Shown one piece after another: positions 1 through 25,774 of a stretch of 55,898 nucleotides of DNA. The notes under the pieces are model-generated. The model was not told the origin of the DNA. It did no database searches and worked only from the letters and a program-made list of their open reading frames with translations. Made by a program: the position numbers and the translations under genes. Origin of the DNA: Cytophagales bacterium (GTDB taxonomy: Bacteria; Bacteroidota; Bacteroidia; Cytophagales; Microscillaceae); contig JANPJR010000030.1 in the NCBI GenBank assembly GCA_031425615.1, positions 274,492-330,389 on the forward strand, given 5' to 3'. Within the stretch, counting starts at the first letter, position 1. Every line of letters begins with the position of its first letter.

Positions 1-1151
1 CTAATACATGTGTTCCACTTACAATTATTTCACCAATATTGCCATTATTTACTACAATATTGTTAAATTCTTGTGTGTTATTTACTTCTATTATATTATT
101 GGTTATATTTATTATGCATAATTGTACATTTTTATCTATTTTTCCCACATACAAGCCTTGTTTTTGGTGCATTTTCATTTGATTATGTACCATTACAATA
201 TCTTTTGCCTGCACTGCACTTATTGGCTCTGCTTCCGTAGCACCATATACTACCTCTATATGTGCGTGTGGAAACGCTTGCATATATATATGTGCCTCTT
301 GTGAAAATACAGGTGCGCCCCCCGTAAATATTTTGCTAATTTGTGGTAATTGTATGTTGTTTTTTAACATATATTCGCTTATTTTTTTTACAAAAAAAGG
401 AGATGCAATCAATGTATTTACATGATATTGTGTTAATTGGTGCATAATCTTTTTTGGTTGCATAGTATTTAACTTACTAAACTTACAATTTGCTATAATG
501 GTTGTGGTTGCTGATGCCAAATTAACCAATAACATGATTGGGAGCATAGTCATATTTATTTCTGTTGGCGTAGCATTTATTTTGGGTGCAAGTGCATTAT
601 ATTGTGCCAGCAATTGTGCATGTGTGCGTATCGCTCCTTTTGGTGTGCCTGTGCTTCCTGTTGTAAAAGTTATCAATGCAATATCTTGTGGCTGTGTTTC
701 AGTTTGTTTTTCAAAAATATTTATTTGTTTTGTGTTAATTTTATCTTGTAATTTTTGTTTTTTAAAATATAATGTTAGCTTTATTGGTATTTTACGCAGT
801 TCTTTTGAAAAAATAGACAGTATTTTTATTTTAAAAAACCCAACAAATGCCTGACAATTTGCTATTTTGCAACATTCTTCCATGCGTTTTTTATTTACCC
901 AAGCGTCCAAAAATACCGCAGTAGCCCCAATATTAAAAATAGCTAACACAATTCTATACAAATCAATGCCAACGCTTGCAAATACCATTACTTTATCCCC
1001 TTTTTTGATGCCTTTTTTCAAAAAATAAAGGCTTGTTTCTTGTATTTCTTGGGCTAATTGTTCAAAAGTTATCTCTTTTTTTAGAGAAATAATGGCTAAT
1101 TTTTGTGGATTTTGCTTTGCTTGTTCAAAAAATAAATCTATAATATTCAAT
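1..1151 (-). CDS. AMP-dependent synthetase/ligase (acyl-CoA synthetase-like); C-terminus lies outside the window; likely TTG start at complement(1149..1151)
   Basis: Minus-strand frame is open from pos 1 to a TAA just upstream of the TTG. Translation begins (L/M)NIIDLFFEQAKQNPQKLAIIS and contains TTGSTGTPKGAIRTH, matching AMP-binding motif I T[SG]GSTGxPKG. There is no in-frame ATG, which is why the ATG-only ORF track missed it. Confidence 0.7.
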
Positions 1152-1382
1152 GGCGTAAATAATAAATGGTATAGTATAAAAAATAAATTTTAGCTTAAAT
1201 ATAATAATTAAAAAAGCTTTTTAATTGTTTTGTTGGCGTAATATATTTTTAAAAATTAAAAGGTAAAAAAATATGTATTGTACAATTTTAATTCTTTGGA
1301 AAGTAAATTTTTATTAAAATTATTAAAATATTATTAAAAATTAAAAAAAAATAAATATTAACGCTACTGTTTTACCTATTTT

Positions 1383-2357
1383 TTATAAATTTCTGCCTAA
1401 TAGTACATAATTTTTATATATTTTTCCAGAATAATTTTTTGATATTTGCGTAGAAAAACCATTTTCACGCATAAAAGCGTGTATTATTTGCGTAAAACCA
1501 TTTTGAAACGCATTTTTATACAATATATTTCCTATTACATGCCCCAATCCTTGCCATTTTTTATCTGGGTGTCGTGAGATAGATTTTATAATAAGGCTTT
1601 TTTCAGTCAAATTCCATACATCAGGTATTGCAAAAAATACCCCAATGATATTTTTTTGGCTATCTTCTGCTATTAGCACAAATTCTTTTTTTATGATGGG
1701 CAAAATTTTAAGATATTTTTCCAAAAAAAAATCTATTGAAATAGGTGTATAAAATGTATTTTGGGCAAATGCAATGCTATTAAATGCAAAAATATTACGC
1801 AATTCTTGTTCAAAATTCATAAGGTCTATCTCTCTAATCGTTACACCTACATTTTCAAATGTTTTTGCTTGGGCTAATACTTCTAATTTGTCAAAAACAA
1901 TATCATTATCTATGCTTGAAAAGTATTTTTCCACAATTTCAAAACCTACTTGCTCAAAATGCGTTACGTAATATGCGTGTTGATAAGGTTCTAAAAAGAA
2001 ATTTGGATAATTATTGTGCGTATTCAAACGGTAATTGTCCCATGTTGAGCCTTGCATTTGTCCTAAAACATATTTTCCCCCAAGATTTTTTATTTTTTCA
2101 AGGGCAATATGTAATAAATTTACGCCAAAATCCCCATGTTCTACCGCTTCATAATTGCCAATGCAAAAAATTTTTTGGTTTTTGTATTGTAATTTTTCAT
2201 TATAATAAATTGCCAAATGTGCTTTTGGGCTATTATCATGTATTTGATACAATCTTTCTACTAAATATGCGTCTGTAATATATTCACACATTTTTTTTTG
2301 TTGTAAAATGTATGCTGAGTACAAATTTTGTAGCAATTCATCAAATAAATCATTCAT
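1383..2357 (-). CDS. hypothetical protein, possibly an acyltransferase-fold (GNAT/DUF2156-like) enzyme
   Basis: 324-aa ORF with no TM segments, 55-bp gap to the upstream gene on the same strand, no recognisable catalytic motif; function inferred only from context. Confidence 0.35.
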   Translation of the reverse strand: MNDLFDELLQNLYSAYILQQKKMCEYITDAYLVERLYQIHDNSPKAHLAIYYNEKLQYKNQKIFCIGNYEAVEHGDFGVNLLHIALEKIKNLGGKYVLGQMQGSTWDNYRLNTHNNYPNFFLEPYQHAYYVTHFEQVGFEIVEKYFSSIDNDIVFDKLEVLAQAKTFENVGVTIREIDLMNFEQELRNIFAFNSIAFAQNTFYTPISIDFFLEKYLKILPIIKKEFVLIAEDSQKNIIGVFFAIPDVWNLTEKSLIIKSISRHPDKKWQGLGHVIGNILYKNAFQNGFTQIIHAFMRENGFSTQISKNYSGKIYKNYVLLGRNL

Positions 2358-2411
2358 ATTATTGTATTATTTTAAATAAAATAGTTGTTTTTTAATACAA
2401 AACATTCGTTT

Positions 2412-3083
2412 TTAAATCCCAAATATTTTCAACCCTATAATTACCGCTATTGGAATTGTAATATTATCTATTCCTTTGCCACTTACACCTTCTACAAAAG
2501 CAGTAAATAATGCAATACTTGCCATTGCTATTAAAAAATAAAAAGAAAAAGAAAGTTGTGCAATCAATACATTAAAGTACCCTATATGTAGCAAAAAACA
2601 GCTTACAAAAAATGCTATACTGCCCCCAAAACTCTTTTGGCTACTGCCTATTTTGTATGTTTTATAAGGAAAATTCTTTCCAAAAATTTCAGCTATTGGG
2701 TCGCACAAAGCAAGTGAAAGCATTGGTAGGTAAAAGAAATATAGTTTTTGCCCCTCAAAATCATACACAAGATAACAAAAATAAACTGCACAAGGGTATA
2801 ATAAACTACCTACTGAAAATCTCTTAATTGCATTAATGGATTTTAAAAAATTAAACCACAAACTGATTGATAATAGCACAAAAAACCCAGCACAAAGCAC
2901 CAATACAAGCCAATGATTTGCCAAAAATATTGGAAAAAGCAGGGTTATAATGCCTGTACCTATATGTACGATTTTGCGTGTTAGCTCTGCTTTCATGCGG
3001 AGAGCATGATACAAAAATTCTGCTACAATAAACAATAATAAAAACACTCCTCCCAATAAAAACATGTTGGCTATTTGTTGCAT
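2412..3083 (-). CDS. CTP-dependent polyprenol/diacylglycerol kinase family membrane protein (dolichol/phytol-kinase-like)
   Basis: 223 aa, about 6 TM helices, motifs KIVHIGTGI and CDPIAEIFGKNFPY...GGSIAFF typical of the DolK/PhyK / CDS-like cytidylyltransferase family. Confidence 0.55.
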   Translation of the reverse strand: MQQIANMFLLGGVFLLLFIVAEFLYHALRMKAELTRKIVHIGTGIITLLFPIFLANHWLVLVLCAGFFVLLSISLWFNFLKSINAIKRFSVGSLLYPCAVYFCYLVYDFEGQKLYFFYLPMLSLALCDPIAEIFGKNFPYKTYKIGSSQKSFGGSIAFFVSCFLLHIGYFNVLIAQLSFSFYFLIAMASIALFTAFVEGVSGKGIDNITIPIAVIIGLKIFGI

Positions 3084-3140
3084 ATCATTACATTTTTGAT
3101 GATTTTGGTTGAATTTTTAGGTTAAATTTTGGAGAAATAT

Positions 3141-4205
3141 TTACAAATAATCCACTACAAATTGATTATAGAAAAAACCTTTGTCTTGTGGAGCTAATTC
3201 TTGACAAATATCTTGCTGAAACGATAATTTTTGTGGCAATATGGAGGACATTATGCGGGAAACCATCAAATTCCAATATGCAAACTTTGCATTATTCTCT
3301 GCTCCTATCACAAGTTGCTGGGTTGTGTGTGCAAATACATCTTTGGGCATATATTCAAAGATATTTGACAAATTAAAAGCATCAAATTTGCCAAATAATG
3401 GAATAGCATCTTCTACTTTTCCCTGCTGTAACGTTATTTTATTGATATTTTTTTGAATAATATCAAAGTTTTGCGGTTGTAAATAGTGCGGTAATAGTTC
3501 CCCAAAATGCCCCAAGAGTGCAAAGTGCAACATTTCGTTTGATTGGGCGTAAATACTTTGCAAATGTTTAGCACTTTTTTGATAAATATACTGCGATACT
3601 GGTATTTTTACATGGTCAAAAAAACTTTTATCTCTGCCATATTTCTCCATAATGAACTTACTAAAAAATATTTTGAACATTAACCGCCATGCCCAAGTGT
3701 TCCACTTTTGATTATAGAAAATTTGTTGTTGCAATTCTTCTTTTTTTGCCAAAAGTCTTTGAATTTTTGTTTTATTATGCACAAAAGGCAATATTTTATG
3801 GCTAAAAAGATGAAAATAACGCTCAAATTTGCCTTGATATATTACACCTTTTTGTATCAAATCAAGGTTTTTTGTCCAATATTCATACGCATTTGGATAA
3901 GAGAAAGCATTTTTTAGTTTTTCAAGCACCAAAATTCTATTTTTTGAAGGCAAAAACCCTAAAAATTCTAAAATTTCTTGATACGAAAGCACCCTAAAAC
4001 ACGCTTGTTTGAGGGCTACTAAGTATAATTGTATGTGATTAATATCCATACATACTACTTTTTGTGGATTTGTTGTCAATAACGAAAAACTATTGTCCCC
4101 TGCTGAAGCTACAGATAAGATTTTTGCATTATCTGTTAGCGAAAGCCCTTTTAAAAGGACATTTGCATCTTCCCAACAGTTGGCATAGCGAAGAATATCG
4201 TGCAT
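3141..4205 (-). CDS. DUF3419 / BtaA-like protein (S-adenosylmethionine:diacylglycerol 3-amino-3-carboxypropyl transferase family)
   Basis: N-terminus MHDILRYANCWEDANVLLKGLSL and overall length match the COG5379/BtaA-like family. Confidence 0.6.
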   Translation of the reverse strand: MHDILRYANCWEDANVLLKGLSLTDNAKILSVASAGDNSFSLLTTNPQKVVCMDINHIQLYLVALKQACFRVLSYQEILEFLGFLPSKNRILVLEKLKNAFSYPNAYEYWTKNLDLIQKGVIYQGKFERYFHLFSHKILPFVHNKTKIQRLLAKKEELQQQIFYNQKWNTWAWRLMFKIFFSKFIMEKYGRDKSFFDHVKIPVSQYIYQKSAKHLQSIYAQSNEMLHFALLGHFGELLPHYLQPQNFDIIQKNINKITLQQGKVEDAIPLFGKFDAFNLSNIFEYMPKDVFAHTTQQLVIGAENNAKFAYWNLMVSRIMSSILPQKLSFQQDICQELAPQDKGFFYNQFVVDYL

Positions 4206-4268
4206 AAATGGTTTATTTTGATGCTAATTAAATTGTAATTTGTAGTAATTAGATTATAATTTGTGAGA

Positions 4269-6920
4269 TTAGGATTTTTTTATGATGTCTATTTTCCCTG
4301 TACTACCATTCATTTCTACGGTCATGCCTGTTTCCAATGTTTTCATTAGCCCTGTAATACCTACGATGCAAGGTTTCCCCATTTCCCTTGCCACTATCGC
4401 AGAATGACTAAGCAAACTGCCACGCTCCACCAAAATTCCGCTTGCTTGGGGAAACAATACCACCCACGAGGGGTCGGTGCTGTGTGTTACGAGTATGTTA
4501 TTGTTGAGTGCATTGCTATCATTTGGATTTTGTAGTACCTGTACTTGTTGTTTTACTACGCCTACACAACAACCTACGCCCTGTAAATCGCCTGTATGCT
4601 GAATATTTTTTTCTTGGCTGTGAAAATCATTTTGTTTTTGGTCATACACTATACCATACGTAGCAAATCGCTCTGAGGGTTGCCTGTCATCTGCATAAAA
4701 TTGAAATTCTTTTTTTCGTACATTTACCAATTCGTAAAGATTTTGAGTAACAGACGTACCGTTGATGTAAGCAAATATTTCTTCTTTGGTCAAATAAAAA
4801 ATATCTTTTTGGTCTGTAAGTAAATTTTGCTCAAAAAACTTTTTGCCAATATGCACAAATATCTCTCTTACTACGCCATACGCTCTTGTACGTTCGTATC
4901 TCAAATTTTCTCTTTGGCTTATCAAATCTCTTGCCTTGTCTAAAGTTTTGAAGAACTGTCTTTTTTTCCAAAAATTTACAAAAAAGTTTCTTCCAAGCAC
5001 ATTTTTTACTGTTTGTTCTGCGGTTTCTCTTATATTATTTTCAGTATTTTGGTTATAATGTTGGGTTGAAATGCCTTGTATCACATAATTTTTAAGAATC
5101 TTAATAAACAATGTAGGGTTTTGGTTGTATGACACACTTTCAAGTTTGAGTTCACCCACACATCTCTCCCCAAACATATATAAATAGTCGTCTATTTTTT
5201 GTTTTAGCTGAAAAAAATTATTTTTTTGGGAAAAATCATCTTGTTTATGGTTGGTTTCTTCTTGTAAAGTTGTCCAAATTGTATGTTCATTATTATCCAA
5301 AAACATTTTTTTGAGGGTTTCATGTTGTTGGATAAATGCTGACAAATGAATGGTTTGATGTATAGGTTGCGTAGAGATAATATTTTGACTTCCACAGAGC
5401 AAATCGTTGTGAATATTAGGATTTTTGTCGTGTAATTGTAGTTTTTCACACATTTTTTGCAACCTTCCAAAATAAATCATGGCAAAAAAATCATTCAATA
5501 GGGGGGCTTTCCATTCTTGTAGCAGGGTTTTTTCAAAATTAAGGTACAAATCTATTAGTTGGACGATATTTTTTTGTGTGTAGTCTATGTTTTTGTATTC
5601 TGCAATGGTATCATCCACAAGTTTTGTAAAGGTTTTTCTAATTTTGGGGAGGTTTTTTAATTTAAAAATCATGCCTACACCCATTTTTATAACCCTCCAC
5701 CAAGCGTATATTTTGGACATTTTGTAATCATCAGGCACATCAAAACGTTCTTTTACGCCCATCATTTTTTCCATGTAGCGTGCATTTATATTATAGCTGG
5801 GCAACATTGCAAGCATTTGATACCACGATTTCAAATTGTAGTAAATTCTTCCATTGAGCAACCCCAATGTATTGGCAAATACATGTTCATTTTGTGCAAT
5901 TACCTTTTTTTCCACACCAAGAAAACCTGCAAACAGTGAATAAGCACGCTGGTATGCTTTGCTCACAAACGAGAAAGTAAGAGGTGTAGTTACATTTGGA
6001 TAAGACTCAATAATATTGCTGTTGTCCCAAAGAATATAATTATTATCCTGTATTTTGGGTTTGATGGTGGTAATATTGCGTGTTTGGAGGAGGTATAATG
6101 TATCATTTTTGATGCAAAATTCTATGTCTTGGGGCTTTTTAAAATGTTTTTCCAAACGTTTCAAAACTTCCACAATCTCCAAGATGTGTTTTTCCGAGAT
6201 AGAAGGTTTATTTTGCAAATCTGCTTCTACTTCAGTCTTGGCTGTGTGATGTTTTTGGTGCGTATCTAATGAAATTTTGTGCGTTTTGGTTGCTATTTTG
6301 CTAATAATGTCTTTTGAAGTTGGTTTTTTCAAAGCATTTTTTACAATAAATGTATCAACATCTACACTTCCATTTACCACACCTTCCCCTACGCCCCAAG
6401 TACTATTGATAATGATTTCATTACGCATATCATTTGGATTATCATGTAGGATATTTACGCCAAAAGCCACGCCTGACACATCTGCATCTATCATTTCCTG
6501 AATAATGATGGCAGGTGTTTGAATATCATGCAGGATTCCGTGTTGTTTTTTGTAGGCTTTTACGCGGTCATTTTGGGGAGAAGCAAATACTTTTTGAATT
6601 TTTTCATGTATATTATCCAAATCCACATACAAAAAGCTATCAAACATACCCGCAAAGGAATATTTTTCGCCATCTTCCTCAACAGACGAAGAACGGACTG
6701 CGAAATAGGTTACATTTGGGAGTTCTTCTTTGACAAAAGTAGCAATTTTGGACGAGAGTTTTTCATTTTTTTGCTGAAAAATCACAATAAATGAAGGTAT
6801 AAGTAGCTTTAATTTGTGCATGGCGATAAGATTTTCAGCTTTATTGCCAACTTTAACAGGATTTTCTTGGATTTTTTTAGTGAACTTCAAAATTTTAATT
6901 GGTTTGGTTTTGAGAAACAA
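4269..6920 (-). CDS. PEP-utilising enzyme family protein (PpsA N-terminal ATP-grasp/PEP-pyruvate binding domain plus C-terminal mobile His domain; rifampin-phosphotransferase-like architecture)
   Basis: 883 aa. N-term KVGNKAENLIAM..., central VAFGVNILHDNP, C-term GCCVGVVKQQVQVL...VERGSLLSHSAIVAREMGKPCIVG, which is the PEP-utilising mobile-domain signature. Confidence 0.7.
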   Translation of the reverse strand: MFLKTKPIKILKFTKKIQENPVKVGNKAENLIAMHKLKLLIPSFIVIFQQKNEKLSSKIATFVKEELPNVTYFAVRSSSVEEDGEKYSFAGMFDSFLYVDLDNIHEKIQKVFASPQNDRVKAYKKQHGILHDIQTPAIIIQEMIDADVSGVAFGVNILHDNPNDMRNEIIINSTWGVGEGVVNGSVDVDTFIVKNALKKPTSKDIISKIATKTHKISLDTHQKHHTAKTEVEADLQNKPSISEKHILEIVEVLKRLEKHFKKPQDIEFCIKNDTLYLLQTRNITTIKPKIQDNNYILWDNSNIIESYPNVTTPLTFSFVSKAYQRAYSLFAGFLGVEKKVIAQNEHVFANTLGLLNGRIYYNLKSWYQMLAMLPSYNINARYMEKMMGVKERFDVPDDYKMSKIYAWWRVIKMGVGMIFKLKNLPKIRKTFTKLVDDTIAEYKNIDYTQKNIVQLIDLYLNFEKTLLQEWKAPLLNDFFAMIYFGRLQKMCEKLQLHDKNPNIHNDLLCGSQNIISTQPIHQTIHLSAFIQQHETLKKMFLDNNEHTIWTTLQEETNHKQDDFSQKNNFFQLKQKIDDYLYMFGERCVGELKLESVSYNQNPTLFIKILKNYVIQGISTQHYNQNTENNIRETAEQTVKNVLGRNFFVNFWKKRQFFKTLDKARDLISQRENLRYERTRAYGVVREIFVHIGKKFFEQNLLTDQKDIFYLTKEEIFAYINGTSVTQNLYELVNVRKKEFQFYADDRQPSERFATYGIVYDQKQNDFHSQEKNIQHTGDLQGVGCCVGVVKQQVQVLQNPNDSNALNNNILVTHSTDPSWVVLFPQASGILVERGSLLSHSAIVAREMGKPCIVGITGLMKTLETGMTVEMNGSTGKIDIIKKS

Positions 6921-7096
6921 GAAATTTACAGAAATTTTTTCTTAAAAATAAAAAAAAAACATATTTTTGTATAAAAAATTTGGTACGCTGACAATCTTAG
7001 TGAATACATATTTTTTGAATAACTTTCATTTGATAAGCATACAAACTCCACTAAAATTGCCAAACAACTATAAATTTTACAAAAATAAATAAAATA

Positions 7097-7600
7097 ATGA
7101 CAAAAAATAATACTTGGTATATAGAAATCGCAGGCATAACTTGTGCCACAATAGGATTTTTTTTGAGAATCGGACAAATTGGTGGATTTAGCGTATTTTT
7201 GATGTCGTTTGGATTTGGTATGTTGCTGGTAAACTATCTCAGCAGAGCAAGTGCAGTGTATTTACCAAAATATGATTTCTTGGCACAAGATATCGCTAAA
7301 CCTTTGGTATCTATCACATACAGTATTGTGAGTTTGGGAATTTTAGGACTTATTTTAAAGTTTAATTTTTTAAAATTAGGACAAGATGTATTAGAAATAA
7401 GCACATATTTACACCTCATCTTAGTAATTTTGTTGCTGTTTGCTATGCGTATTGCGGATTCTGCGCTACAATTTGAAAGCACAAAATCGCTTTTGATACG
7501 GTCTTTGGTGATGCTGGCGGTGGTTTATATGTTTTATCTTACTTCGCAAGAACGCTTGCAAAAGGCATTTACAGGAAAGAAAATGGAAAGTAGAAAATAG
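7097..7600 (+). CDS. hypothetical small integral membrane protein
   Basis: 167 aa, 4-5 hydrophobic helices, no recognisable motifs. Confidence 0.35.
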   Translation: MTKNNTWYIEIAGITCATIGFFLRIGQIGGFSVFLMSFGFGMLLVNYLSRASAVYLPKYDFLAQDIAKPLVSITYSIVSLGILGLILKFNFLKLGQDVLEISTYLHLILVILLLFAMRIADSALQFESTKSLLIRSLVMLAVVYMFYLTSQERLQKAFTGKKMESRK

Positions 7601-7755: not shown

Positions 7756-8445
7756 ATGCCTTTTTTAACACAAATCCAAATACAAGAAAATATTTTTTTA
7801 GGCATTTGGAAAATAGATAACGCAAAAGAAAATTTGGATTTTTTTTTGAATTCTTTTATTTTAAATCAAAAAGATGAATTTTATTTGGAAAAAATAAAAA
7901 ACACAAATGCCAAAATTCGGTGTTTAGCAAGTAGGCTTACCCTCAAAATTATTTTAGAAAATCAACAAATTACCTACAATGGCATATCCCACACACCAGA
8001 AAAAAAACCCTTTTTAGCTGAAAATCCTCTTTGGCACATTTCTATTTCACATACCGAAGATTATTGTGGAGCTGTAATTTCTTATAAAAAGTTCGTAGGA
8101 TTAGATTTAGAAAAAGCACAATATAAATTGCAAAAAATTTCACATAAATTTTTGCATGAAACCGAAAAAAATGCTTTTTTTCCTGAAAATTTACCCCAAA
8201 CTATTACCCTCCAAAATCTTACGCAAATATGGGCAAGCAAAGAAGCCATGTATAAACTATATGGAAAGAAAAATATGATTTTTAAAGATGATTTGGCAAT
8301 ACTAACACTACAACCCGAAAATCCAAATCCACACGAAAATTTGGGACGTTTTTTTGATAAAAACCAACAAACTTGGCTACAATGTGCCTTGTATAATCAT
8401 TGTTGGGAAGATGTATGGAGCGTAGTGAGTATTCTTTTACAATAA
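7756..8445 (+). CDS. 4'-phosphopantetheinyl transferase superfamily protein (Sfp/EntD-like)
   Basis: ISISHTEDYCGAV...GLDLE...IWASKEAMYKLYGKK matches the PPTase motifs (G-x-D, W/F-x-x-KEA-x-x-K). Confidence 0.65.
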   Translation: MPFLTQIQIQENIFLGIWKIDNAKENLDFFLNSFILNQKDEFYLEKIKNTNAKIRCLASRLTLKIILENQQITYNGISHTPEKKPFLAENPLWHISISHTEDYCGAVISYKKFVGLDLEKAQYKLQKISHKFLHETEKNAFFPENLPQTITLQNLTQIWASKEAMYKLYGKKNMIFKDDLAILTLQPENPNPHENLGRFFDKNQQTWLQCALYNHCWEDVWSVVSILLQ

Positions 8446-11132: not shown

Positions 11133-11537
11133 TTAAGATATTTCCTCGCAAGGTATCATTTCAAATTTGAGGGTAGAAAAAGAATGAAAATCCTCACCCA
11201 AGTCTTTCATATCCTCGTCTTCTGTTTCATAAAACCATTGCACAATGATTTCTTGCTCAGGTGTTGCAGTATTTTCAATAAGTTTAATGATTTTGCCAAT
11301 CATACCTGATGTACTGGTATTGACATAAATCAATTTGAGTGCAAGGACTACTTTTTCGGGGTGTTGTTCCTTTAAAAACTGTTCAATATGTTCCAACAAA
11401 GGATTATAAAAATCTTCTGTATCTTCAGGGATTGACACGCCTTTTATTTCAAAAATGCCATTTTCAACCTTAAAAGTTACCTCTGGTGTGGTAGGTGTTT
11501 CTTTTATAAATAAATCTTCCATAAATAAAGGGTTCAA
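11133..11537 (-). CDS. DUF1987 (SiaC-like) protein, copy 1
   Basis: About 130 aa. ...TPEVTFKVENGIFEIKGVSIPEDTEDFYNPLLEHIEQF...LIYVNTSTSGMIGKIIKLIE...IVQWFYETEDEDM is the SiaC/DUF1987 pattern. The start may be the second Met, MEDLF. Confidence 0.75.
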   Translation of the reverse strand: MNPLFMEDLFIKETPTTPEVTFKVENGIFEIKGVSIPEDTEDFYNPLLEHIEQFLKEQHPEKVVLALKLIYVNTSTSGMIGKIIKLIENTATPEQEIIVQWFYETEDEDMKDLGEDFHSFSTLKFEMIPCEEIS

Positions 11538-11627
11538 AAGTTCAAAGGTTTAATAGTTCAAGGGGTTCAAAGAGATTCAAAAGTTTAAAGAATAATACTT
11601 TTCATTGAACCTTAAACCCTTTAATCT
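11529..11627. repeat. GTTCAAAGG-type degenerate tandem array with an internal inverted half
   Basis: ggttcaaaagttcaaaggtttaatagttcaaggggttcaaagagattcaaaagtttaaag ... ttcattgaaccttaaaccctttaatctttcatt, lying between the PP2C stop and the DUF1987 start. Confidence 0.7.
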
Positions 11628-11631
11628 TTCA

Positions 11632-13662
11632 TTATGTTAGTTTAAATCCAGCAACCAAAATATCGTCCATTTGTCTATTTGTTCCCATCCAATCTATAAG
11701 TGTTTTATTTAGGATTTTTCGTTGTTCAGTCATAGGTTCTTGATGATGCTCAAAAAGCAATTCTTCAAGTCTATTTTTTGAAAATTTACGCCCTCTTTGC
11801 CCACCAAATTGGTCTTGGAAACCGTCAGAATATACATAGATAGAAAGTGGATTTTCAGGGTTATAATTGAATACATGTGAAGTAAAAACCCTTTCCCTAT
11901 CTTTCTGAAAACCTCCCACAGGCAATTTACTTGATTCTATCACTTGCATTTGTCCATCTTGTATCAATAAAAGTGGTCTGCCTGCCCCTGCAAACTCCAA
12001 TCGTTTTTTGCGTGGGTCAATAATACACAATGCAACGTCCATGCCATCTTGATTTTGGGTTTCTTGTTGGTTAAGCGCAATGCCTATGCTATTGTGCAAT
12101 TCTTCCAAAATCCAGCTTGGGTCTGTAATACCTTGTAAGTTGATAATTTGGTTTAGATAAGAATCTCCCAACATGGACATAATAGCACCAGGCACACCAT
12201 GTCCTGTACAGTCTAACGCAGCAAAAATAACTTTGCCATTTTTTTCTGAAAACCAATAAAAATCACCTGAAACAATATCTCTTGGGCGAAATAATATAAA
12301 ATTTTCGGGGAAACCCGCAGAAATTTCCAAAGCTGTAGGGAGCATTGACTCCTGAATACGTTTGGCATACGTAATACTCGCGGTAATGTCTTTATTTTTG
12401 CGTTCTATTTCTTTAAAAGTAGCTTCCAGCGTTTCATTTTTCCGATTGATTGCTTCATTTTGGATTTCAATTTTACCTTTTTGGTCTTCCAATTCTTTAT
12501 TTTTTGCTTCAATTTCTATTTTTCTTGTTTCCAAAATTTCCTTTTGTGTAGTAAGTTCTTTAGAAGTTTTTTCTATTTCTTCTTTTTGACTTTGCAAAAT
12601 TTTATTTGTTCTTTTGCTTTGTATATTGCTTCTATACAAGAAAAATACTACCACAAGCACCAACAATACAACAGCAAAAAGGAGGTAAATCCACAGTGTT
12701 TGCCTGTGTGATTCCGCTTCAGCTAATTCTCTTTTTTTGCGTTCCAATTCTGCAAGTGCATTACTTTCTTCCAATCTACCTTGTGTAGCATCTTGCAAAT
12801 CTTTATAATACGTTTCTCTAATGCCCGCATATTGTGTATAAAATTCGTAGGCTTGTTTGTAGTTGGATTGTGTAACTGCTACTTGTGCAAGTCCTTGATA
12901 AGCACGTTGCAAATCTGCATTATCGCCACTGCGTTGTGCCATATACAGTAATTGGCGAAATGAACGAGAAGATTCAGGAATATTATCTTGTTGAAAAAAA
13001 GTTTCGCCTAATCTATGTAAATTATTCGCAATAAGTTTTCTATCCAACAATGAATCTGCCATTACAAGTGCTTTTTGATGATATTGAATGGCTTTATCAA
13101 ATTCTAATTTTTTGGAAAAAACAGTCCCAAGATTTGTCAAAGTAGTTGCAATGCCCTGTTTATCTTTCACATTTTGGTAAATTGAAAGCGCTTTTTCCAA
13201 ATAATTGAGGGCTTTGTCGTTCTCGTTCAATAAGGCATAACAACTGCCTAATCGGTTGTAACTCTCTGCTATTTTTGTATTATTTTTAGTATTTTCTTTG
13301 AGTGCTAAGGCTTTGAGGTAAAATTCTACTGCTTTCGTATAATCCCCTTGTATTTGATAAATATTACCTATTTTGTCTGCACTTGCAATAATACCTTGTA
13401 CATATTTTATTTTTTCGGAAATATGTAAGGCTTCTTCTGCGTATTTTCGGATTTTAGCTGGGCTTTCTTTTGTATTTTGGTATTCATCATACAAATTATT
13501 CAAAATTCGCACCCTTGTAGTGTCATTACGCGTCATTTTGAGCGTACTTTCAAGTTTTTCTATACGTGGATTAGGTTGTGCATAGCTTTTTGGGATAATA
13601 TTAAAGCATATTACCGCCATCAAAAAACCCAAAAAGCATCTTTTTTTATTCATAAGGGACAC
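11632..13662 (-). CDS. PP2C/SpoIIE-family Ser/Thr phosphatase with periplasmic TPR sensor, single TM helix and coiled-coil (SiaA-like)
   Basis: Signal peptide, about 280 aa of TPR repeats, TM LWIYLLFAVVLLVLVVVFFLY, heptad coiled-coil, then SpoIIE/PP2C core ...FRPRDIVSGDFYWFSEK...ALDCTGHGVPGAIMSML...YVYSDGFQDQFGG. Confidence 0.85.
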   Translation of the reverse strand: MSLMNKKRCFLGFLMAVICFNIIPKSYAQPNPRIEKLESTLKMTRNDTTRVRILNNLYDEYQNTKESPAKIRKYAEEALHISEKIKYVQGIIASADKIGNIYQIQGDYTKAVEFYLKALALKENTKNNTKIAESYNRLGSCYALLNENDKALNYLEKALSIYQNVKDKQGIATTLTNLGTVFSKKLEFDKAIQYHQKALVMADSLLDRKLIANNLHRLGETFFQQDNIPESSRSFRQLLYMAQRSGDNADLQRAYQGLAQVAVTQSNYKQAYEFYTQYAGIRETYYKDLQDATQGRLEESNALAELERKKRELAEAESHRQTLWIYLLFAVVLLVLVVVFFLYRSNIQSKRTNKILQSQKEEIEKTSKELTTQKEILETRKIEIEAKNKELEDQKGKIEIQNEAINRKNETLEATFKEIERKNKDITASITYAKRIQESMLPTALEISAGFPENFILFRPRDIVSGDFYWFSEKNGKVIFAALDCTGHGVPGAIMSMLGDSYLNQIINLQGITDPSWILEELHNSIGIALNQQETQNQDGMDVALCIIDPRKKRLEFAGAGRPLLLIQDGQMQVIESSKLPVGGFQKDRERVFTSHVFNYNPENPLSIYVYSDGFQDQFGGQRGRKFSKNRLEELLFEHHQEPMTEQRKILNKTLIDWMGTNRQMDDILVAGFKLT

Positions 13663-13785
13663 AGAAAAGCTTATTAGTCTATAAACATTAGCCTATAAAA
13701 TTATTTGTTGTTTTTAGTTGTTAATTATTTATTTAAAAAAAATAAAAACCTGACAACTAAAAAACTAACAATTGATACCTAAAAT

Positions 13786-14181
13786 TTAGTTTTCAGGTTC
13801 AAAAGAAAACATATTGATTTTCAAGCCTGTATCTTTCATATAATCTTCTGCTTCTTCTGCGATGCTGTCATCATCTTCAGGGTAATACCAATTTACAATA
13901 ACTTGTCCGCTTTCGTCTTCGTATTTTTTCAATACACGCAAAATATTGAGGATACTACGTGAAGAACTTGTATTAAAATATGTGAGCCTAAAATTGAATG
14001 TAAGCCCTTTTTTAATTTCACTGATGTATTTTTCCAACCAACCAATGATTTGGTTATAAAATTCGTCTGTATCTTCCAAGTATGATTCGCCTGATATTTC
14101 ACACACACCATTACCTGCATTAAGCATAACTTCGGGAATGAAATACACATCACTTTTCCCTGAAATTTCTAAATTTTCCAT
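13786..14181 (-). CDS. DUF1987 (SiaC-like) protein, copy 2
   Basis: MENLEISGKSDVYFIPEVMLNAGNGVCEISGESYLEDTDEFYNQIIGWLEKY...LTFNFRLTYFNTSSSRSILNIL...VIVNWYYPEDDD. Confidence 0.8.
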   Translation of the reverse strand: MENLEISGKSDVYFIPEVMLNAGNGVCEISGESYLEDTDEFYNQIIGWLEKYISEIKKGLTFNFRLTYFNTSSSRSILNILRVLKKYEDESGQVIVNWYYPEDDDSIAEEAEDYMKDTGLKINMFSFEPEN

Positions 14182-14322
14182 AGTATTTACAATTTTATAA
14201 TAAAAGGTTTTATAAAAATTTTATAATTGTGCGCAATTTTTGTGAAAAACTGTATTTGAAAATGTAGTTTTGTGATACATTTTTTACGTTGTTTTTTTTA
14301 TTAATTTTTAAAAATTATTTTT

Positions 14323-14892
14323 TTAAGTTGTTTCTTCTTCTTCTGGAAATTTGGCTACTGTTACAAATATGGCATAAAAAGCCATATCTCCCACAAGTTC
14401 TTTTATTTTGATTTCAAGTTTGTTGTCTGCAGTAAGTGCTACCTGCACAAGACCAATACCCGCTCCTTTACTTTCTTCGTTTTGTGGGTCATTGCGTAAC
14501 TTACGTTTGTATTCACGCAGGGCTTCACGGTCTAAAGTGCTGATAGTTTCATATTTTTCCAATAATTTTTGAACAGCAGTTTTATACACAAGATTTCCTG
14601 TGATGAGTTTGTATTCTGTTTCATTTTGAATGATTACAAGCGTGCCTACTTTGTCCCTATTACCAAAATGATTAATTTCTTTGGAATAATACAATACGTT
14701 TTGGGCTAACTCCATAAAAATGGCAAACACTTTTTTGCCTACTTTTGAGTTTTCTTCTTGTAATTTTTGGCGAATATCCCTACTAAACTCCGCCAAAAGA
14801 ACATCTGTAAGCGGACCTTTATAAGACAAAATAATATTCTCTTGGCTTATTTGGCTGTGATATTCAAAAAAATTAAAACCCTTTAAATTCAT
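14323..14892 (-). CDS. SiaB-like GHKL/anti-sigma-factor-type Ser/Thr kinase-like protein
   Basis: 189 aa. N-box-like FMELAQNVLYYSKE and G2-box-like SKGAGIGLVQVAL. It is the first gene of the DUF1987/PP2C operon and is homologous to the N-terminal half of the 24770-25774 fusion. Confidence 0.6.
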   Translation of the reverse strand: MNLKGFNFFEYHSQISQENIILSYKGPLTDVLLAEFSRDIRQKLQEENSKVGKKVFAIFMELAQNVLYYSKEINHFGNRDKVGTLVIIQNETEYKLITGNLVYKTAVQKLLEKYETISTLDREALREYKRKLRNDPQNEESKGAGIGLVQVALTADNKLEIKIKELVGDMAFYAIFVTVAKFPEEEETT

Positions 14893-15462
14893 ATAATTTT
14901 GCTAAAAAGTTGCTTCAAAGATAAGTAAAAACAATGAAATACAAATACGTTAATTGATATTTTTAATTTTACACGCTTAATTTTATACTTATTTCGTGTT
15001 TATTTTATTTGTAAAGCGTGTTTTATGGATTATGTTTTATAATTTTTGGTATTTTAAAACCTTAAAAATGGTAATAAGTGCAATAAAGTAAATTTTTGGC
15101 TAAAAATAAATATTTTTTTTTATTTTAAAAAACATCAAAACAAAAAAAATGTAAAAAAGAATGTAAAAGATGCTATTTTTTGTGAAAATATTTGTTTTTT
15201 TTGTTAGTTTTCAAGCTATTACACTGCTAAATCTAATAAACCACAAAAAAAAACGCCTGACAAAATCAAGCGTCTTTTTAACCTATTTATTTATTTTTTG
15301 CATGTTCTTTTTTTCTATCTATCTTTTTTTCTACTCGTCTTTTTTTTATCTATCTATGTTTATCTTTTCTGTCTTGCATGTTTAGTGTGTTGTTTAGGAC
15401 AACAAGCCATCAAATAACATTTTTTTACCTTTTACCCAATCAAAATAAATTGATTTTAGATT

Positions 15463-15834
15463 TTACCATTTATATTTCTGCAAAAGCAAAGTAAAACGGT
15501 CTTGCACACGGTATTTTTCATACGCTGGCTCATCTATTTGTTCCCAAACAGGAAAACCATATTGCATAGCAAGTTCAAGGTTTTTGTAAAAATCTTCGTC
15601 TTCGTCCTGCATAGCATACGCTTCCGCCAATACAAGATAAGCACGTGAATTATTTTGGTTGAGTTTCAACGCTCTTTCACCATATTGTATTGCGAGATTT
15701 TTGAATGAACCACTCATAAAGCAAATATTTTTAGTTGGTGTAAAAAATGTATGTAACTGTGTTTTGGTGTTTGATGATGCAAAGATATGTATAATGTAAA
15801 AATTTTCAAATTTTTTGTTACTGTCTTTATGCAA
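15463..15834 (-). CDS. hypothetical small TPR-like protein (true start probably the internal Met at complement 15717)
   Basis: ALKLNQNNSRAYLVLAEAYAMQDEDEDFYKNLELAMQYG looks like a single TPR-like helix pair; no other motif. Confidence 0.3.
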   Translation of the reverse strand: MHKDSNKKFENFYIIHIFASSNTKTQLHTFFTPTKNICFMSGSFKNLAIQYGERALKLNQNNSRAYLVLAEAYAMQDEDEDFYKNLELAMQYGFPVWEQIDEPAYEKYRVQDRFTLLLQKYKW

Positions 15835-16256
15835 TATTTAATGTATTTTTTGTAGTATTTTGTAGTATTTTTATGAAAAATTATTTTTTTACTATTTTAT
15901 AAATAATAAAAAATATCCTTAAATCAAATGTAAAACCATTTTTAAAAATTAAATCTACAAAAACATAAGATAATAACTTATTGTACTTTTTTATTTATTT
16001 TTCAACTAATTTATAAAATAATACGCTTTTTTTTGATGACGACTGTTTTGGTAAAACATGAAAACGTGTAAATAATTGCATTTTTTTTGTGAAAAATATA
16101 AAAAAAGCAATTATTTAGCCTCCTAAAAACCAAAAGGGGAATAAATACTTTTTTTTTGTATTTATACCCCCTTTGACGTAAAAAAACACTATTTAGTTGC
16201 GTAAAATCTGTAAAATACGCCATTTTAACATTTTTTTACATTTTTCAAAAAAACGC

Positions 16257-17798
16257 TTAGTCTTTCCATTTAAGCGTAAATAAATCTGTTCTTCTGTCTT
16301 TCAGATTTCTTACGCTTCCTTGCGTGTGAAGTTCTTTGAGCAAATCCAAATCCACATCAGCCACCAAAATCATTTCTGAATTTGGGGTTGCTTCTGCCAC
16401 AACTGCATTGGTTGGGAAAGCAAAATCAGAAGGCGAAAATACCGCAGATTGGGCATATTGAATGTCCATATTAACCACTTTGGGCAAATTGCCCACACTG
16501 CCTGCGATTGCTACATAACACTCGTTTTCCACAGCTCTTGCCTCAGCACATTTGCGTATGCGTTGGTAGCCATTATTAGAATCAGTAGAAAATGGCACAA
16601 ATAAAATTTGCATACCTTCATCAGCCAACAGGCGTGAAAGTTCAGGAAATTCAACATCATAACACACCAAAACCCCAATTTTACATACATCAGTATCAAA
16701 AATTTTTACTTTGCTTCCTCCCACAATGCCCCAATCATCTACTTCGCTTGGTGTAATGTGTATTTTGTATTGTACTTCATACGTACCGTTACGCCTGCAC
16801 AGATACGACACGTTGTAAAGTTGGTTATTTTCGTATAAAGGAACGCTTCCTGCAATGATATTAATGTTGTAACTCACTGCAAATTCTATAAATTTCTCCA
16901 AAATATCTTCGGTATATTGTGCCAATTTACGAATTGCAACAGGCGCACCATCTTGGTTAAATTTTGCCATGAGAGGCACATTAAACAACTCTGGAAATAA
17001 AATAAAATCCGCATTATAATTGGCAATCGCATTGACATAAAACTCTACATTTTCAAAAAAAGCCTCAATAGAAGGTGCAGTACGCATTTGCCACTGCACA
17101 AGCCCAATCCTTGCAAAAGTTTTGGAACTGCCTATTTTACGTTCTTTTGGGTTGTAATAAATATTGTTCCATTCCAAAAGTGTTGCAAATTTTTTGGATT
17201 CTTTATCACCTTCCAAATAATCTGTAAGTATTTTGATTACACGCAAATCATTACTCAGTTGAAAAGTCAAAACAGGGTCATATATTTCTCTAAGTCTTAC
17301 TTTTTCAATATATTCTTTTGGTTTGAGGGTGCGACTATGTTTTGAATAATTAGGCATACGACCTCCTGCCACGATAGACCTAAGATTGAGATGTTCGCAA
17401 AGTTCTTTGCGAGCATCATACAAACGCCTTCCTATGCGCATACCTCTGTATTCGGGGTCTACACAAATATCTACGCCATATAATACATCACCTTTTGGTG
17501 TGTGTGTGGTAAATTCTTCGTTGCCAGTGGCTTGTGCGTAAGTATGCACATCACCAAGTTTTGGATAATCCACAATAATAGATAATACAAAACCTGCTAT
17601 TTTGCCTCTATCCGATATGCAGATTTGTCCATCAGGAAATATTTGCAACAATTTTTCAAATTGTGCCTGTGTCCAAGCACCGCCTATACCATCACCATAT
17701 ACGTTTTCCATGATGCGCGCAAGTTCCGTATAATCGGAGCTTTGCATAGTGCGTATTTCTAATTCGTGTTCAGTTTCTTGTGCCATAGAAAGGGTCAA
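16257..17798 (-). CDS. bifunctional GNAT N-acetyltransferase / carbon-nitrogen hydrolase (nitrilase superfamily) protein
   Basis: N-terminal GNAT (...GFVLSIIVDY...RGMRIGRRLYDARKE) and C-terminal CN-hydrolase (IGLVQWQM...ILFPELFN...KIGVLVCYDVEFPE...YVAIAGSVG). Confidence 0.85.
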   Translation of the reverse strand: MTLSMAQETEHELEIRTMQSSDYTELARIMENVYGDGIGGAWTQAQFEKLLQIFPDGQICISDRGKIAGFVLSIIVDYPKLGDVHTYAQATGNEEFTTHTPKGDVLYGVDICVDPEYRGMRIGRRLYDARKELCEHLNLRSIVAGGRMPNYSKHSRTLKPKEYIEKVRLREIYDPVLTFQLSNDLRVIKILTDYLEGDKESKKFATLLEWNNIYYNPKERKIGSSKTFARIGLVQWQMRTAPSIEAFFENVEFYVNAIANYNADFILFPELFNVPLMAKFNQDGAPVAIRKLAQYTEDILEKFIEFAVSYNINIIAGSVPLYENNQLYNVSYLCRRNGTYEVQYKIHITPSEVDDWGIVGGSKVKIFDTDVCKIGVLVCYDVEFPELSRLLADEGMQILFVPFSTDSNNGYQRIRKCAEARAVENECYVAIAGSVGNLPKVVNMDIQYAQSAVFSPSDFAFPTNAVVAEATPNSEMILVADVDLDLLKELHTQGSVRNLKDRRTDLFTLKWKD

Positions 17799-24769: not shown

Positions 24770-25774
24770 TTAATCTTCATCATCAACTTCATAGCCTATA
24801 AAATTCATATCAATTTTTGCACTTTCGCTAAGGTCTTGTGCTTCTTTGACAATATCAGTATCATCTTCGGGATAAAACCAATTTACTTCTACTTTTCCAC
24901 CACGTATTTCATACGCTTTTAGGCTACGAAGTGTGTCTAAAATGGCTTTGTAAGAGCTTGTATTAAAATAGGTAAGGCGAAAATTGAATGTAATTTTATT
25001 GTTGGATTCTTTGGTATATTTGTCAATCCAGCTAATAATTTTGGAGTAAAACTCGTTGGTGTATTCCAAATAGGATTCACCAGCCAGCTCACATACCCCT
25101 GTATCACCATTGAGCATTACATAAGGGGTATAAAATTCGCCTTTGTTACTTTTGATGTGTAATGTTTCCATTTGTTGCGTAGATTTTTTTTGGGTGGAAT
25201 TTTTTGAAACAGTAATTAAAAGGGTATAATATGTATATAAGTCATTTATAGGTTGCAAATCTACATGAATAGGATTTTCGGACACAAGGGTAGCTTTGAT
25301 AAGTCCTACGCCTGCTCCTTTGCTATCAGGGTTGTTTGGATTGTCATTTTCTACAATTTCCATGCGGTATTTTCTAAGCCCGTCAGTATCAAGCGTTTGG
25401 ATTTTTTTTGCTTGTTTATCAATAAATTCAGCTTGTTTGTGGGTGATGAGATTACCAGTAAAAAGGTGATAACTTGTTTCCCCTTCCGAAAGCACAATCG
25501 TACCAACAGGTGTAGCTTCGCCAAATTGGTTAATTTCTGCGGAATAATAAAAAATATTTTGGGCTAATTCCAAAAAAATATTGTGTAATTTTCTGCCTGC
25601 ACTTCTATTATTTACTTTATGAACGATTTCGTTGTCCATTTCTGCAATAATTTTGGTGGTGATAGAACCTCTGTAAGACAATATGACGTTTTCGTTGGGT
25701 AAATCCGCATAATATGCCAATGTACCAAGCTGTTCGAGCATATCTAATTTCATAATTGAGACAGTTTTTTCCAT
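24770..25774 (-). CDS. fusion protein: SiaB-like kinase-like domain (N) plus DUF1987/SiaC-like domain (C)
   Basis: Residues 1-190 (...NIFLELAQNIFYYSAE...SKGAGVGLIKATL) align with the 14323-14892 product. After the linker KNSTQKKSTQQMETL, residues about 205-334 (EFYTPYVMLNGDTGVCELAGESYLEYTNEFYSKIISWIDKY...ITFNFRLTYFNTSSYKAILDTL...VEVNWFYPEDDTD) align with the two DUF1987 proteins. Single continuous ORF. Confidence 0.75.
   Translation of the reverse strand: MEKTVSIMKLDMLEQLGTLAYYADLPNENVILSYRGSITTKIIAEMDNEIVHKVNNRSAGRKLHNIFLELAQNIFYYSAEINQFGEATPVGTIVLSEGETSYHLFTGNLITHKQAEFIDKQAKKIQTLDTDGLRKYRMEIVENDNPNNPDSKGAGVGLIKATLVSENPIHVDLQPINDLYTYYTLLITVSKNSTQKKSTQQMETLHIKSNKGEFYTPYVMLNGDTGVCELAGESYLEYTNEFYSKIISWIDKYTKESNNKITFNFRLTYFNTSSYKAILDTLRSLKAYEIRGGKVEVNWFYPEDDTDIVKEAQDLSESAKIDMNFIGYEVDDED

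Follow-up and report, generated by a model that had tools for sequence, protein, structure and literature searches.

What do five tightly packed minus-strand genes from a member of the Cytophagales (Microscillaceae) make together? The genes fill positions 1-6920 of a 55,898-nucleotide stretch of DNA (contig JANPJR010000030.1, positions 274,492 to 330,389; the whole stretch is referred to here as the window) and encode, in the direction of reading, a kinase of the rifampin phosphotransferase (Rph) type, a DUF3419 protein, a polytopic membrane enzyme, a protein with two GNAT folds in tandem and an adenosine monophosphate (AMP)-forming ligase of the ANL superfamily. A first-pass annotation had described them as a tight five-gene cluster for an uncharacterised lipid or head-group modification pathway. 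Our comparison with other genomes shows that the unit is larger than this: the window copy corresponds to genes 3 to 7, in canonical order, of a seven-gene cassette that elsewhere starts with a class-I 3-hydroxy-3-methylglutaryl coenzyme A (HMG-CoA) reductase and a divergent UbiA-like protein. The open reading frame (ORF) listing gives all five window genes as intact and separated by gaps of 232, 54, 57 and 63 bp, counted from the ligase end upward, in agreement with the minus-strand layout and 55-232-bp gaps first reported.

The cassette was defined by a one-genome-per-species scan for its signature protein, the tandem GNAT, which is encoded in at least 223 species genomes; 80 of these were fetched, nearly all of them Bacteroidota and including Dyadobacter, Parapedobacter, Fluviicola, Botryobacter, Chitinophagaceae, Saprospiraceae and Crocinitomicaceae. 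Co-occurrence was counted only in loci with enough flanking sequence, and genes were called colinear if they lie on the same strand. By this measure, colinearity with the GNAT gene ranges from 62/64 testable loci for the downstream ligase through 69/74 for the membrane enzyme, 67/71 for DUF3419, 57/62 for the Rph-type kinase and 55/60 for the upstream UbiA-like gene to 48/57 for the reductase, also upstream. The order of the cassette is reductase, UbiA-like gene, kinase, DUF3419, membrane enzyme, tandem GNAT and ligase, and in many loci neighbouring genes share a few bases at their stop and start codons, as for one transcript. Conversely, the signature GNAT family (980 clusters at 50% identity, E<=1e-30) occurs almost only in this context. 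Moreover, a database protein of 845 amino acids (P0467) is a natural fusion of a tandem GNAT (residues 14-331) and an ANL ligase (344-841), the latter sharing 42% identity with its counterpart in the window lineage. Because of this colinear co-occurrence and the natural fusion, the five window genes are confirmed as a functional unit and as the distal part of the cassette, in line with their initial description as one unit.

Conservation of the neighbourhood across Bacteroidota, which the first-pass annotation had left to be checked, holds, but the cassette is not confined to this phylum. Rather than being scattered in other genomes, the genes are found in full order on a 137-kb plasmid of Roseinatronobacter sp. 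S2 (Alphaproteobacteria; NZ_CP121116.1) and in Brevibacillus laterosporus B9 (Firmicutes; NZ_CP011076.1), whose cassette proteins are 27-49% identical to those of Bacteroidota. In a metagenome scan seeded with the alphaproteobacterial DUF3419 protein, for which 80 loci were fetched of at least 547 relatives, the share of testable loci with canonical neighbours ran from 32/35 for the reductase to 50/56 for the membrane enzyme, and exact-sequence matches put names to cassette-clade DUF3419 proteins in Devosia species, Hyphomonadaceae and Roseinatronobacter/Rhodobaca bogoriensis. No accessory gene recurred beside the cassette beyond single lineages among the loci examined. Since the flanking genes vary from lineage to lineage, the cassette looks self-contained and horizontally mobile.

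Based on the observed families, gene order and spread, we tentatively propose, at somewhat less than an even chance, that the cassette product is a membrane lipid based on a unit of isoprenoid or mevalonate origin; any single mechanistic step is held with much less confidence than this, and we infer every substrate as well as the order of the steps. A lipid-facing product, as suggested at the outset, is plausible because the cassette encodes two polytopic membrane enzymes and because several copies carry further lipid-related genes: a membrane-anchored Polyketide_cyc2/SRPBCC gene lies between GNAT and ligase in about a quarter of loci, a CdsA and CDP-alcohol phosphatidyltransferase pair is added in about eight, and an MMPL exporter gene in the Marivirga tractuosa copy. 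The optional exporter, the lipid-binding protein and the CdsA/CDP-alcohol transferase pair would be in keeping with a phosphate ester stage in the making of the lipid, and the two lead genes, reductase and UbiA-like, point to mevalonate or isoprenoid chemistry. How well each of the seven proteins agrees with this proposal, and which other readings they allow, is considered in the following, beginning with the window genes.

The first window gene (4269-6920, minus strand, TTG start) encodes an 883-aa protein known in databases as "phosphoenolpyruvate synthase". Taken at face value, this name, and nothing else, would turn the cluster into a chance grouping of a gluconeogenic phosphoenolpyruvate (PEP) synthase with unrelated housekeeping lipid genes, and would tie it to a well-known pathway. 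Pfam detects a PPDK_N (ATP-grasp) domain at residues 59-290 and a C-terminal swivelling PEP-utilizers His domain at 807-875, an Rph_4th middle domain is recorded for an identical database protein, and the PEP/pyruvate-binding domain (PF02896) was not among the Pfam matches. Likewise, the PpsA models stay far below their cut-offs (TIGR01418, 213.3 bits against 739.75; PRK06464, 233.7 against 598), and the synteny of the gene is conserved across three phyla. Hence, the enzyme has, by sequence, the Rph-type domain arrangement and is not PpsA, so that only the Rph half of the Rph/PpsA architecture originally assigned to it stands, and a mere juxtaposition of neighbours around a PEP synthase is extremely improbable.

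The best solved relative of the 883-aa protein is the Listeria rifampin phosphotransferase (5fbs/5hv1, 7.7e-56), and its highest NCBIfam score is to PRK06241.2-2 (681.8 bits, cut-off 883). Models of the Rph proteins (NF041857, 258.8 bits against 999; NF000283, 165.7 against 1700) are scored no better than that of PigC (267 bits, cut-off 1300), PigC and RedH models matching the enzyme as well as Rph does. It shares with Rph, PigC/RedH and the PRK06241 "PEP synthase-like" kinases the three-part layout of ATP-grasp, substrate and His domains as well as the catalytic histidine motif, here LLSHSAIVARE, and differs from them in scores far under the cut-offs, in a substrate domain that defies assignment and in a wholly different gene context. 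As both the ATP-grasp domain and the His motif are present, the kinase looks competent. It is expected, by analogy, to phosphorylate its substrate via a phospho-histidine at the expense of adenosine triphosphate (ATP) rather than PEP, since it lacks a PEP/pyruvate domain, as does Rph; the PEP-dependent phosphotransfer first envisaged for it is thus abandoned.

The second window gene (3141-4205, minus strand) codes for a 354-aa DUF3419 protein, a member of the Pfam family of BtaA that matches PF11899 over nearly the entire model (1.6e-56, 192.6 bits versus a cut-off of 28.2, model positions 10-382 of 385). Motifs RYAxCWEDA and SAGDN are invariant across phyla in the cassette DUF3419 proteins; a profile search against the PDB found no solved relative. 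The family membership and the JGI name of orthologues, S-adenosylmethionine (SAM):diacylglycerol 3-amino-3-carboxypropyl transferase, would both suit an ordinary locus for the betaine lipid diacylglyceryltrimethylhomoserine (DGTS), with the DUF3419 protein acting as BtaA on diacylglycerol under phosphate limitation. For comparison, a plasmid of Chondrinema litorale (Bacteroidota) carries a "BtaA family protein" gene followed by a class-I SAM methyltransferase gene, which is the classical btaA-btaB arrangement. The window protein is only 24% identical to this BtaA over 275 residues (E 6e-16), the two resembling each other most in the N-terminal motifs CWED and SAG(D/C)N, and neither of the two proteins matches an NCBIfam model. 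Furthermore, a BtaB-type query returned no homologue in the window and a single weak match (E 2.6e-4) across all cassette loci, and the DUF3419 gene is bound up with unrelated enzymes in the seven-gene cassette. The label BtaA-like is therefore valid at the level of the Pfam family only. DGTS synthesis of the ordinary kind is very unlikely and, together with a chance grouping around a PEP synthase, can be regarded as effectively excluded.

Judged by sequence, DUF3419 is a family of several branches, and that of the window protein is probably not the BtaA branch. What it has in common with the BtaA/BtaB route of Rhodobacter, rhizobia and algae is the full-length PF11899 match with both motifs and, by analogy, a likely shared chemistry, namely the SAM-dependent alkylation of a membrane-lipid hydroxyl. 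It differs by its low identity and its lack of a BtaB-type N-methyltransferase partner, and the cassette DUF3419 gene is always embedded among those of the kinase, the CdsA-like enzyme, the GNAT and the ligase. The 354-aa protein thus probably binds SAM and is possibly a 3-amino-3-carboxypropyl transferase.

Other contexts of DUF3419 genes were also seen. A Rhizobium plasmid (CP041205.1; locus L173, 1-6146) carries genes for a beta-ketoacyl-acyl-carrier-protein synthase III (KAS III), an NAD(P) oxidoreductase, a metallo-beta-lactamase (MBL) hydrolase, a CoF (F390-type) synthetase and a DUF3419 protein, which again couples DUF3419 with an adenylating enzyme. Among the nearest relatives of the window lineage, the DUF3419 gene follows a valyl-tRNA synthetase gene on the opposite strand or a methyltransferase gene (loci L170, 4965-7215, and L172, 8786-10645), and downstream of it in L170 comes a 337-aa ORF without family match. 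The methyltransferase upstream of DUF3419 in L172 was rejected as a BtaB because its NPPF motif is one usually found in N6-adenine methyltransferases and its BtaB match is weak.

The third window gene (2412-3083, minus strand) encodes a polytopic membrane protein of 223 aa. It has no Pfam match at E<=1, and a search of its family profile against the PDB yielded nothing, but ten out of 32 orthologues match CTP_transf_1 (PF01148; best 2e-6). An AlphaFold2 model (predicted local distance difference test, pLDDT, 92.8) has TmCdsA (4q2e) as its sole high-probability fold match in the PDB (0.99; template-modelling score, TM, 0.40). The motif CDPxAAxxGK...KTxxGS, which resembles the cytidine triphosphate (CTP)-binding motif of dolichol and phytol kinases, and D206-N207 are invariant in the family. 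Orthologue matches, predicted fold and motif together suggest that the protein belongs to the CTP-dependent CdsA/dolichol-kinase/phytol-kinase superfamily, where it would be either a kinase or a cytidylyltransferase. Outside Bacteroidota the enzyme is longer, at about 439 aa (L087, 4932-6251; L088, 11059-12378); the extra C-terminal half consists of about five poorly conserved transmembrane helices and has no counterpart in Bacteroidota.

Database names for the 223-aa protein (phytol kinase, dolichol kinase and diacylglycerol/polyprenol kinase at JGI and NCBI), its kinase-type motif and its linkage to a UbiA-family enzyme in 55/60 loci raise the question whether the cassette is a module for the salvage or activation of prenols. 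In tocopherol synthesis, phytol is phosphorylated in turn by VTE5 and VTE6 and the diphosphate is then used by homogentisate phytyltransferase, a route in which a prenol kinase is likewise tied to a UbiA-family enzyme and a second kinase. By this account, a polyprenol or phytol-like alcohol would be phosphorylated by the CTP-dependent kinase and then by the Rph-type kinase in the place of VTE6, the UbiA-like enzyme would use the diphosphate, and the other genes would tailor the product. Yet this leaves the reductase, DUF3419, GNAT and ligase unexplained, and the window copy has no nearby UbiA partner; in addition, the cassette differs from the tocopherol route in having an Rph-type enzyme instead of a VTE6 homologue, a divergent UbiA and no genes for homogentisate or a quinone ring. 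We consider a prenol module improbable.

Next in the cassette, the fourth window gene (1383-2357, minus strand) codes for the 324-aa signature protein. The family assignment left to profile searches by the first-pass annotation was only partly achieved by them, as neither Pfam nor NCBIfam gave a match; it is the structure model that identifies a tandem GNAT, and some orthologues match PF00583. The AlphaFold2 model (pLDDT 90.6) shows two GNAT folds in tandem, and Foldseek searches of the PDB returned a glucosamine N-acetyltransferase, MshD and MAB_4324 at probability 1.0 and TM ~0.6, versus TM ~0.38-0.44 for L-PGS, A-PGS, MprF/DUF2156 and FemX. Of the earlier GNAT/DUF2156-like label, the GNAT part is therefore retained, as a tandem GNAT, whereas DUF2156 is the weaker structural match (TM ~0.4 versus ~0.6). 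A K-W-x-G-L-G loop of the type that binds coenzyme A (CoA) pyrophosphate is conserved in the C-terminal half. The two-domain fold and this loop are shared with other tandem GNATs such as MshD and the Clostridium glucosamine N-acetyltransferase, from which the window protein differs by an identity of just 8-14% and the missing Pfam match.

The last window gene encodes the ANL-superfamily (AMP-forming) ligase and is cut by the window start, so that positions 1-1150 (minus strand, TTG start codon at 1150) hold its N-terminal 383 codons. A public contig overlapping the window (L001) has the gene complete, with 532 aa, followed by an unrelated 125-aa ORF. The fragment matches PF00501 (7.6e-43, 147.2 bits), and the core ANL motif TGSTGTPKG is readable. 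At full length the ligase scores under every curated NCBIfam cut-off, the best model being PRK09274, "fatty acid CoA ligase family" (337.5 bits against 478), and the second-best family the OleC beta-lactone synthetases (196.9 bits against 900). Solved ligases are distant relatives only, 4-coumarate-CoA ligase being the nearest in the PDB (2e-16). The natural fusion P0467 supports a direct hand-over between ligase and GNAT.

With a 4-coumarate-CoA ligase as closest solved relative of the ligase, the cassette product could also be a secondary metabolite of the prenylated aromatic or meroterpenoid type. The ligase would then activate an aromatic acid, the UbiA-like enzyme would prenylate the ring, as do UbiA, MenA and AuaA, the Rph-type kinase would phosphorylate a phenol or enol, as do flavonoid kinase and PigC, and GNAT and DUF3419 would add decorations. 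Ring prenylation is the commonest chemistry of UbiA proteins (PMC9235831), PigC and RedH score like Rph against the kinase, a cytochrome P450 gene overlaps the cassette end in Brevibacillus, and the patchy, plasmid-borne distribution resembles that of a secondary-metabolite cluster. On the other hand, no aromatic-precursor gene is found in or beside the cassette, the second Asp motif canonical for UbiA is absent from the UbiA-like protein, and the prenol-kinase-like enzyme and the optional CdsA/CDP-alcohol transferase pair fit lipid head-group chemistry better. We therefore view an aromatic product as unlikely, if worth keeping in mind.

The two genes that precede the kinase elsewhere also bear on the proposed isoprenoid or mevalonate-derived lipid. 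The cassette reductase is of the archaeal/eukaryotic class I (best solved relative 6hr7, 3e-81) and, when aligned to human HMG-CoA reductase, keeps the equivalents of E559, R590, D690-K691-K692, H752, N755, D767 and H866, in the numbering of the literature. It thus probably makes mevalonate from HMG-CoA rather than reducing another thioester; reduction of a different acyl-CoA made by the ligase was considered and downgraded in view of the conserved HMG-binding and catalytic residues. The UbiA-like protein, at 72% mean column identity within Bacteroidota the best conserved cassette protein after the reductase, barely exceeds its Pfam threshold (36.8 bits), and its family profile matched no solved UbiA in the PDB. 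As seen from the genes compared (L004, 4774-5739; L087, 523-1428; L088, 6301-7227), its first motif is DExKDxxxD, while NGxVxExGRK replaces the second Asp-rich motif; both are conserved across three phyla.

The presence of the reductase at the head of the cassette allows still another reading, in which mevalonate itself is the building block: the ligase would form mevalonyl-CoA, as does SidI, and the GNAT would transfer the acyl group to an amine, as does SidF, yielding a mevalonyl-amide and possibly a siderophore-like molecule or a signal. Alphaproteobacteria and Brevibacillus usually make isoprenoids by the methylerythritol phosphate (MEP) pathway, and nevertheless the reductase leads the cassette in Alphaproteobacteria and a Brevibacillus; its travelling with the cassette in such lineages would be explained if mevalonate were a building block. 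That no other mevalonate-pathway gene recurs near the cassette, that OleC, the second-best family of the ligase, acts on beta-hydroxy acids, that the ligase-GNAT fusion exists and that FecCD-type iron-siderophore permease genes lie upstream in Brevibacillus all agree with this. The likeness to SidI/SidF of the fungal fusarinine-type siderophores consists in the combination of a mevalonate source, an ANL ligase and a GNAT-fold N-acyltransferase. Moreover, both membrane enzymes and the kinase, which the cassette has in addition to that combination, would be without a role, the enoyl-CoA hydratase (SidH-type) and the hydroxylase typical of the fungal route are missing, as are hydroxyornithine genes, and the FecCD neighbourhood is seen in one locus only. 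A mevalonyl-amide is accordingly doubtful, at about the same low probability as a prenol salvage module.

For the proposed membrane lipid, we envisage the following route. The reductase would supply mevalonate, and the UbiA-like enzyme would couple an acceptor with a lipid activated as its diphosphate. Hydroxyl or phosphate groups of the lipid would be phosphorylated by the membrane enzyme, at the expense of CTP, and by the Rph-type kinase, at the expense of ATP, either to build a diphosphate donor (cf. VTE5 and VTE6 for phytol) or to activate a hydroxyl as a leaving group (cf. PigC). The DUF3419 enzyme would then attach the 3-amino-3-carboxypropyl group of SAM to a hydroxyl of the lipid, in the manner of BtaA with diacylglycerol, and finally the ligase would activate a carboxylic acid, be it a fatty acid or mevalonate, whose acyl group the tandem GNAT would put on the new amino group.

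Several observations weigh against this scheme. Given the 24% identity to a BtaA from a btaA context, aminocarboxypropyl transfer is conjectural, with methyl transfer or a different use of SAM as alternatives, and in view of the 36.8-bit score and the replacement of the second Asp-rich motif by NGxVxExGRK the UbiA-like protein may not be an ordinary prenyltransferase. The closest solved ligases act on aromatic acids, not fatty acids. Finally, a search of the 55.9-kb window at E<1e-8 gave no homologue of either the HMG-CoA reductase or UbiA, and in the two nearest relatives with a readable neighbourhood (67% and 58% identity) the DUF3419 genes are not preceded by kinase or UbiA genes. The cassette is therefore rearranged in the low-GC lineage of the window, where the module may work differently or be decaying.

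The gene set fits no known pathway, in line with the first-pass annotation, which could assign none, and no published description of the cassette was found in full-text literature, in which many subscription papers are outside coverage. A widespread orphan operon with unknown product, the ebo cluster (eboA-F, with the UbiA-like EboC) of Bacteroidota and other phyla, is comparable in being built on a divergent UbiA-like enzyme (PMC9235831). Its partner genes are wholly different, and the cassette UbiA scores only 21.5 bits (E 1.2e-4) with the EboC model, whose cut-off is 250. The Ubi-297 paper concerns the ebo cluster and not the present cassette (PMC9235831), the lipocone paper treats other UbiA and HMG-CoA reductase neighbourhoods, and the aminolipid review covers PF13444 acyltransferases only. 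With all seven proteins in known superfamilies, the gene set is an orphan lipid or secondary-metabolite operon.

Individual copies of the cassette have further neighbours. On the Roseinatronobacter sp. S2 plasmid (L087, L089), genes for a haloacid dehalogenase (HAD) phosphatase, two family-2 glycosyltransferases and a WavE lipopolysaccharide (LPS)-synthesis protein lie directly upstream on the same strand with overlapping junctions, and recur in no other locus. In Brevibacillus laterosporus, the cytochrome P450 gene that overlaps the end of the ligase gene is located at 15010-16236 of locus L088, and the FecCD-type permease genes, two in number, lie together with an ABC transporter gene at 15-3798 of the same locus. 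Fluviicola riflensis carries a HipA/HipB-type toxin-antitoxin pair and one more gene between the kinase and DUF3419 genes (L002, 5966-8151), and the HipA/HipB insertion is common to two other Fluviicola loci.

In the window, the cluster is bordered by an AT-rich divergent intergenic region (6921-7096), which presumably holds its promoter. A scan for sigma-70 promoters and terminators, with a model that is not one of Bacteroidota promoters, performed no better than on shuffled sequence, and found no terminator-like sites on the minus strand inside the cluster. Divergent from the cluster are a 167-aa ORF without family match (7097-7600, plus strand) and a 4'-phosphopantetheinyl transferase gene (7756-8445, plus strand), near which no carrier protein was seen; both were dropped as cluster parts, as the pair stands beside the cluster in no other genome examined. 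An Rfam search of the window detected no RNA family. Farther away, positions 33696-36263 (plus strand) encode a DnaB with an intein, with Hint and LAGLIDADG homing-endonuclease domains between the DnaB N-terminal domain and DnaB_C. In a single 513-aa protein (16257-17798, minus strand), a GNAT acetyltransferase domain occurs together with one of the carbon-nitrogen hydrolase type. Genes of the partner-switching type recur at 11133-14892 and 24770-25774 (minus strand) and at 30342-32954 (plus strand) and encode SiaC, a TPR protein with SpoIIE/PP2C phosphatase, DUF6272, a DUF6272-SiaC fusion and a HAMP-GAF-PAS-SpoIIE phosphatase.

For the families involved, the cassette offers the prospect of first functions for what is probably a non-BtaA branch of DUF3419, for an Rph-type kinase outside antibiotic resistance, for a branch of UbiA whose metal-binding motif is altered and possibly for a stand-alone use of HMG-CoA reductase in bacteria. 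For cassette genes, moreover, the names "phosphoenolpyruvate synthase" and "SAM:diacylglycerol aminocarboxypropyl transferase" turn out to mislead. Since cultured hosts exist (Dyadobacter, Marivirga tractuosa, Parapedobacter, Devosia, Roseinatronobacter/Rhodobaca and Brevibacillus laterosporus), knockout lipidomics could reveal the product. It is possible, though on balance unlikely, that this product represents an undescribed lipid class: a membrane lipid derived from an isoprenoid or from mevalonate, with a homoserine-type head group that stems from SAM and is N-acylated. The seven-enzyme pathway for it would be portable and would have spread among Bacteroidota, Alphaproteobacteria and Firmicutes. 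If so, hosts with the MEP pathway would employ a class-I HMG-CoA reductase to supply mevalonate for a use other than bulk isoprenoids.

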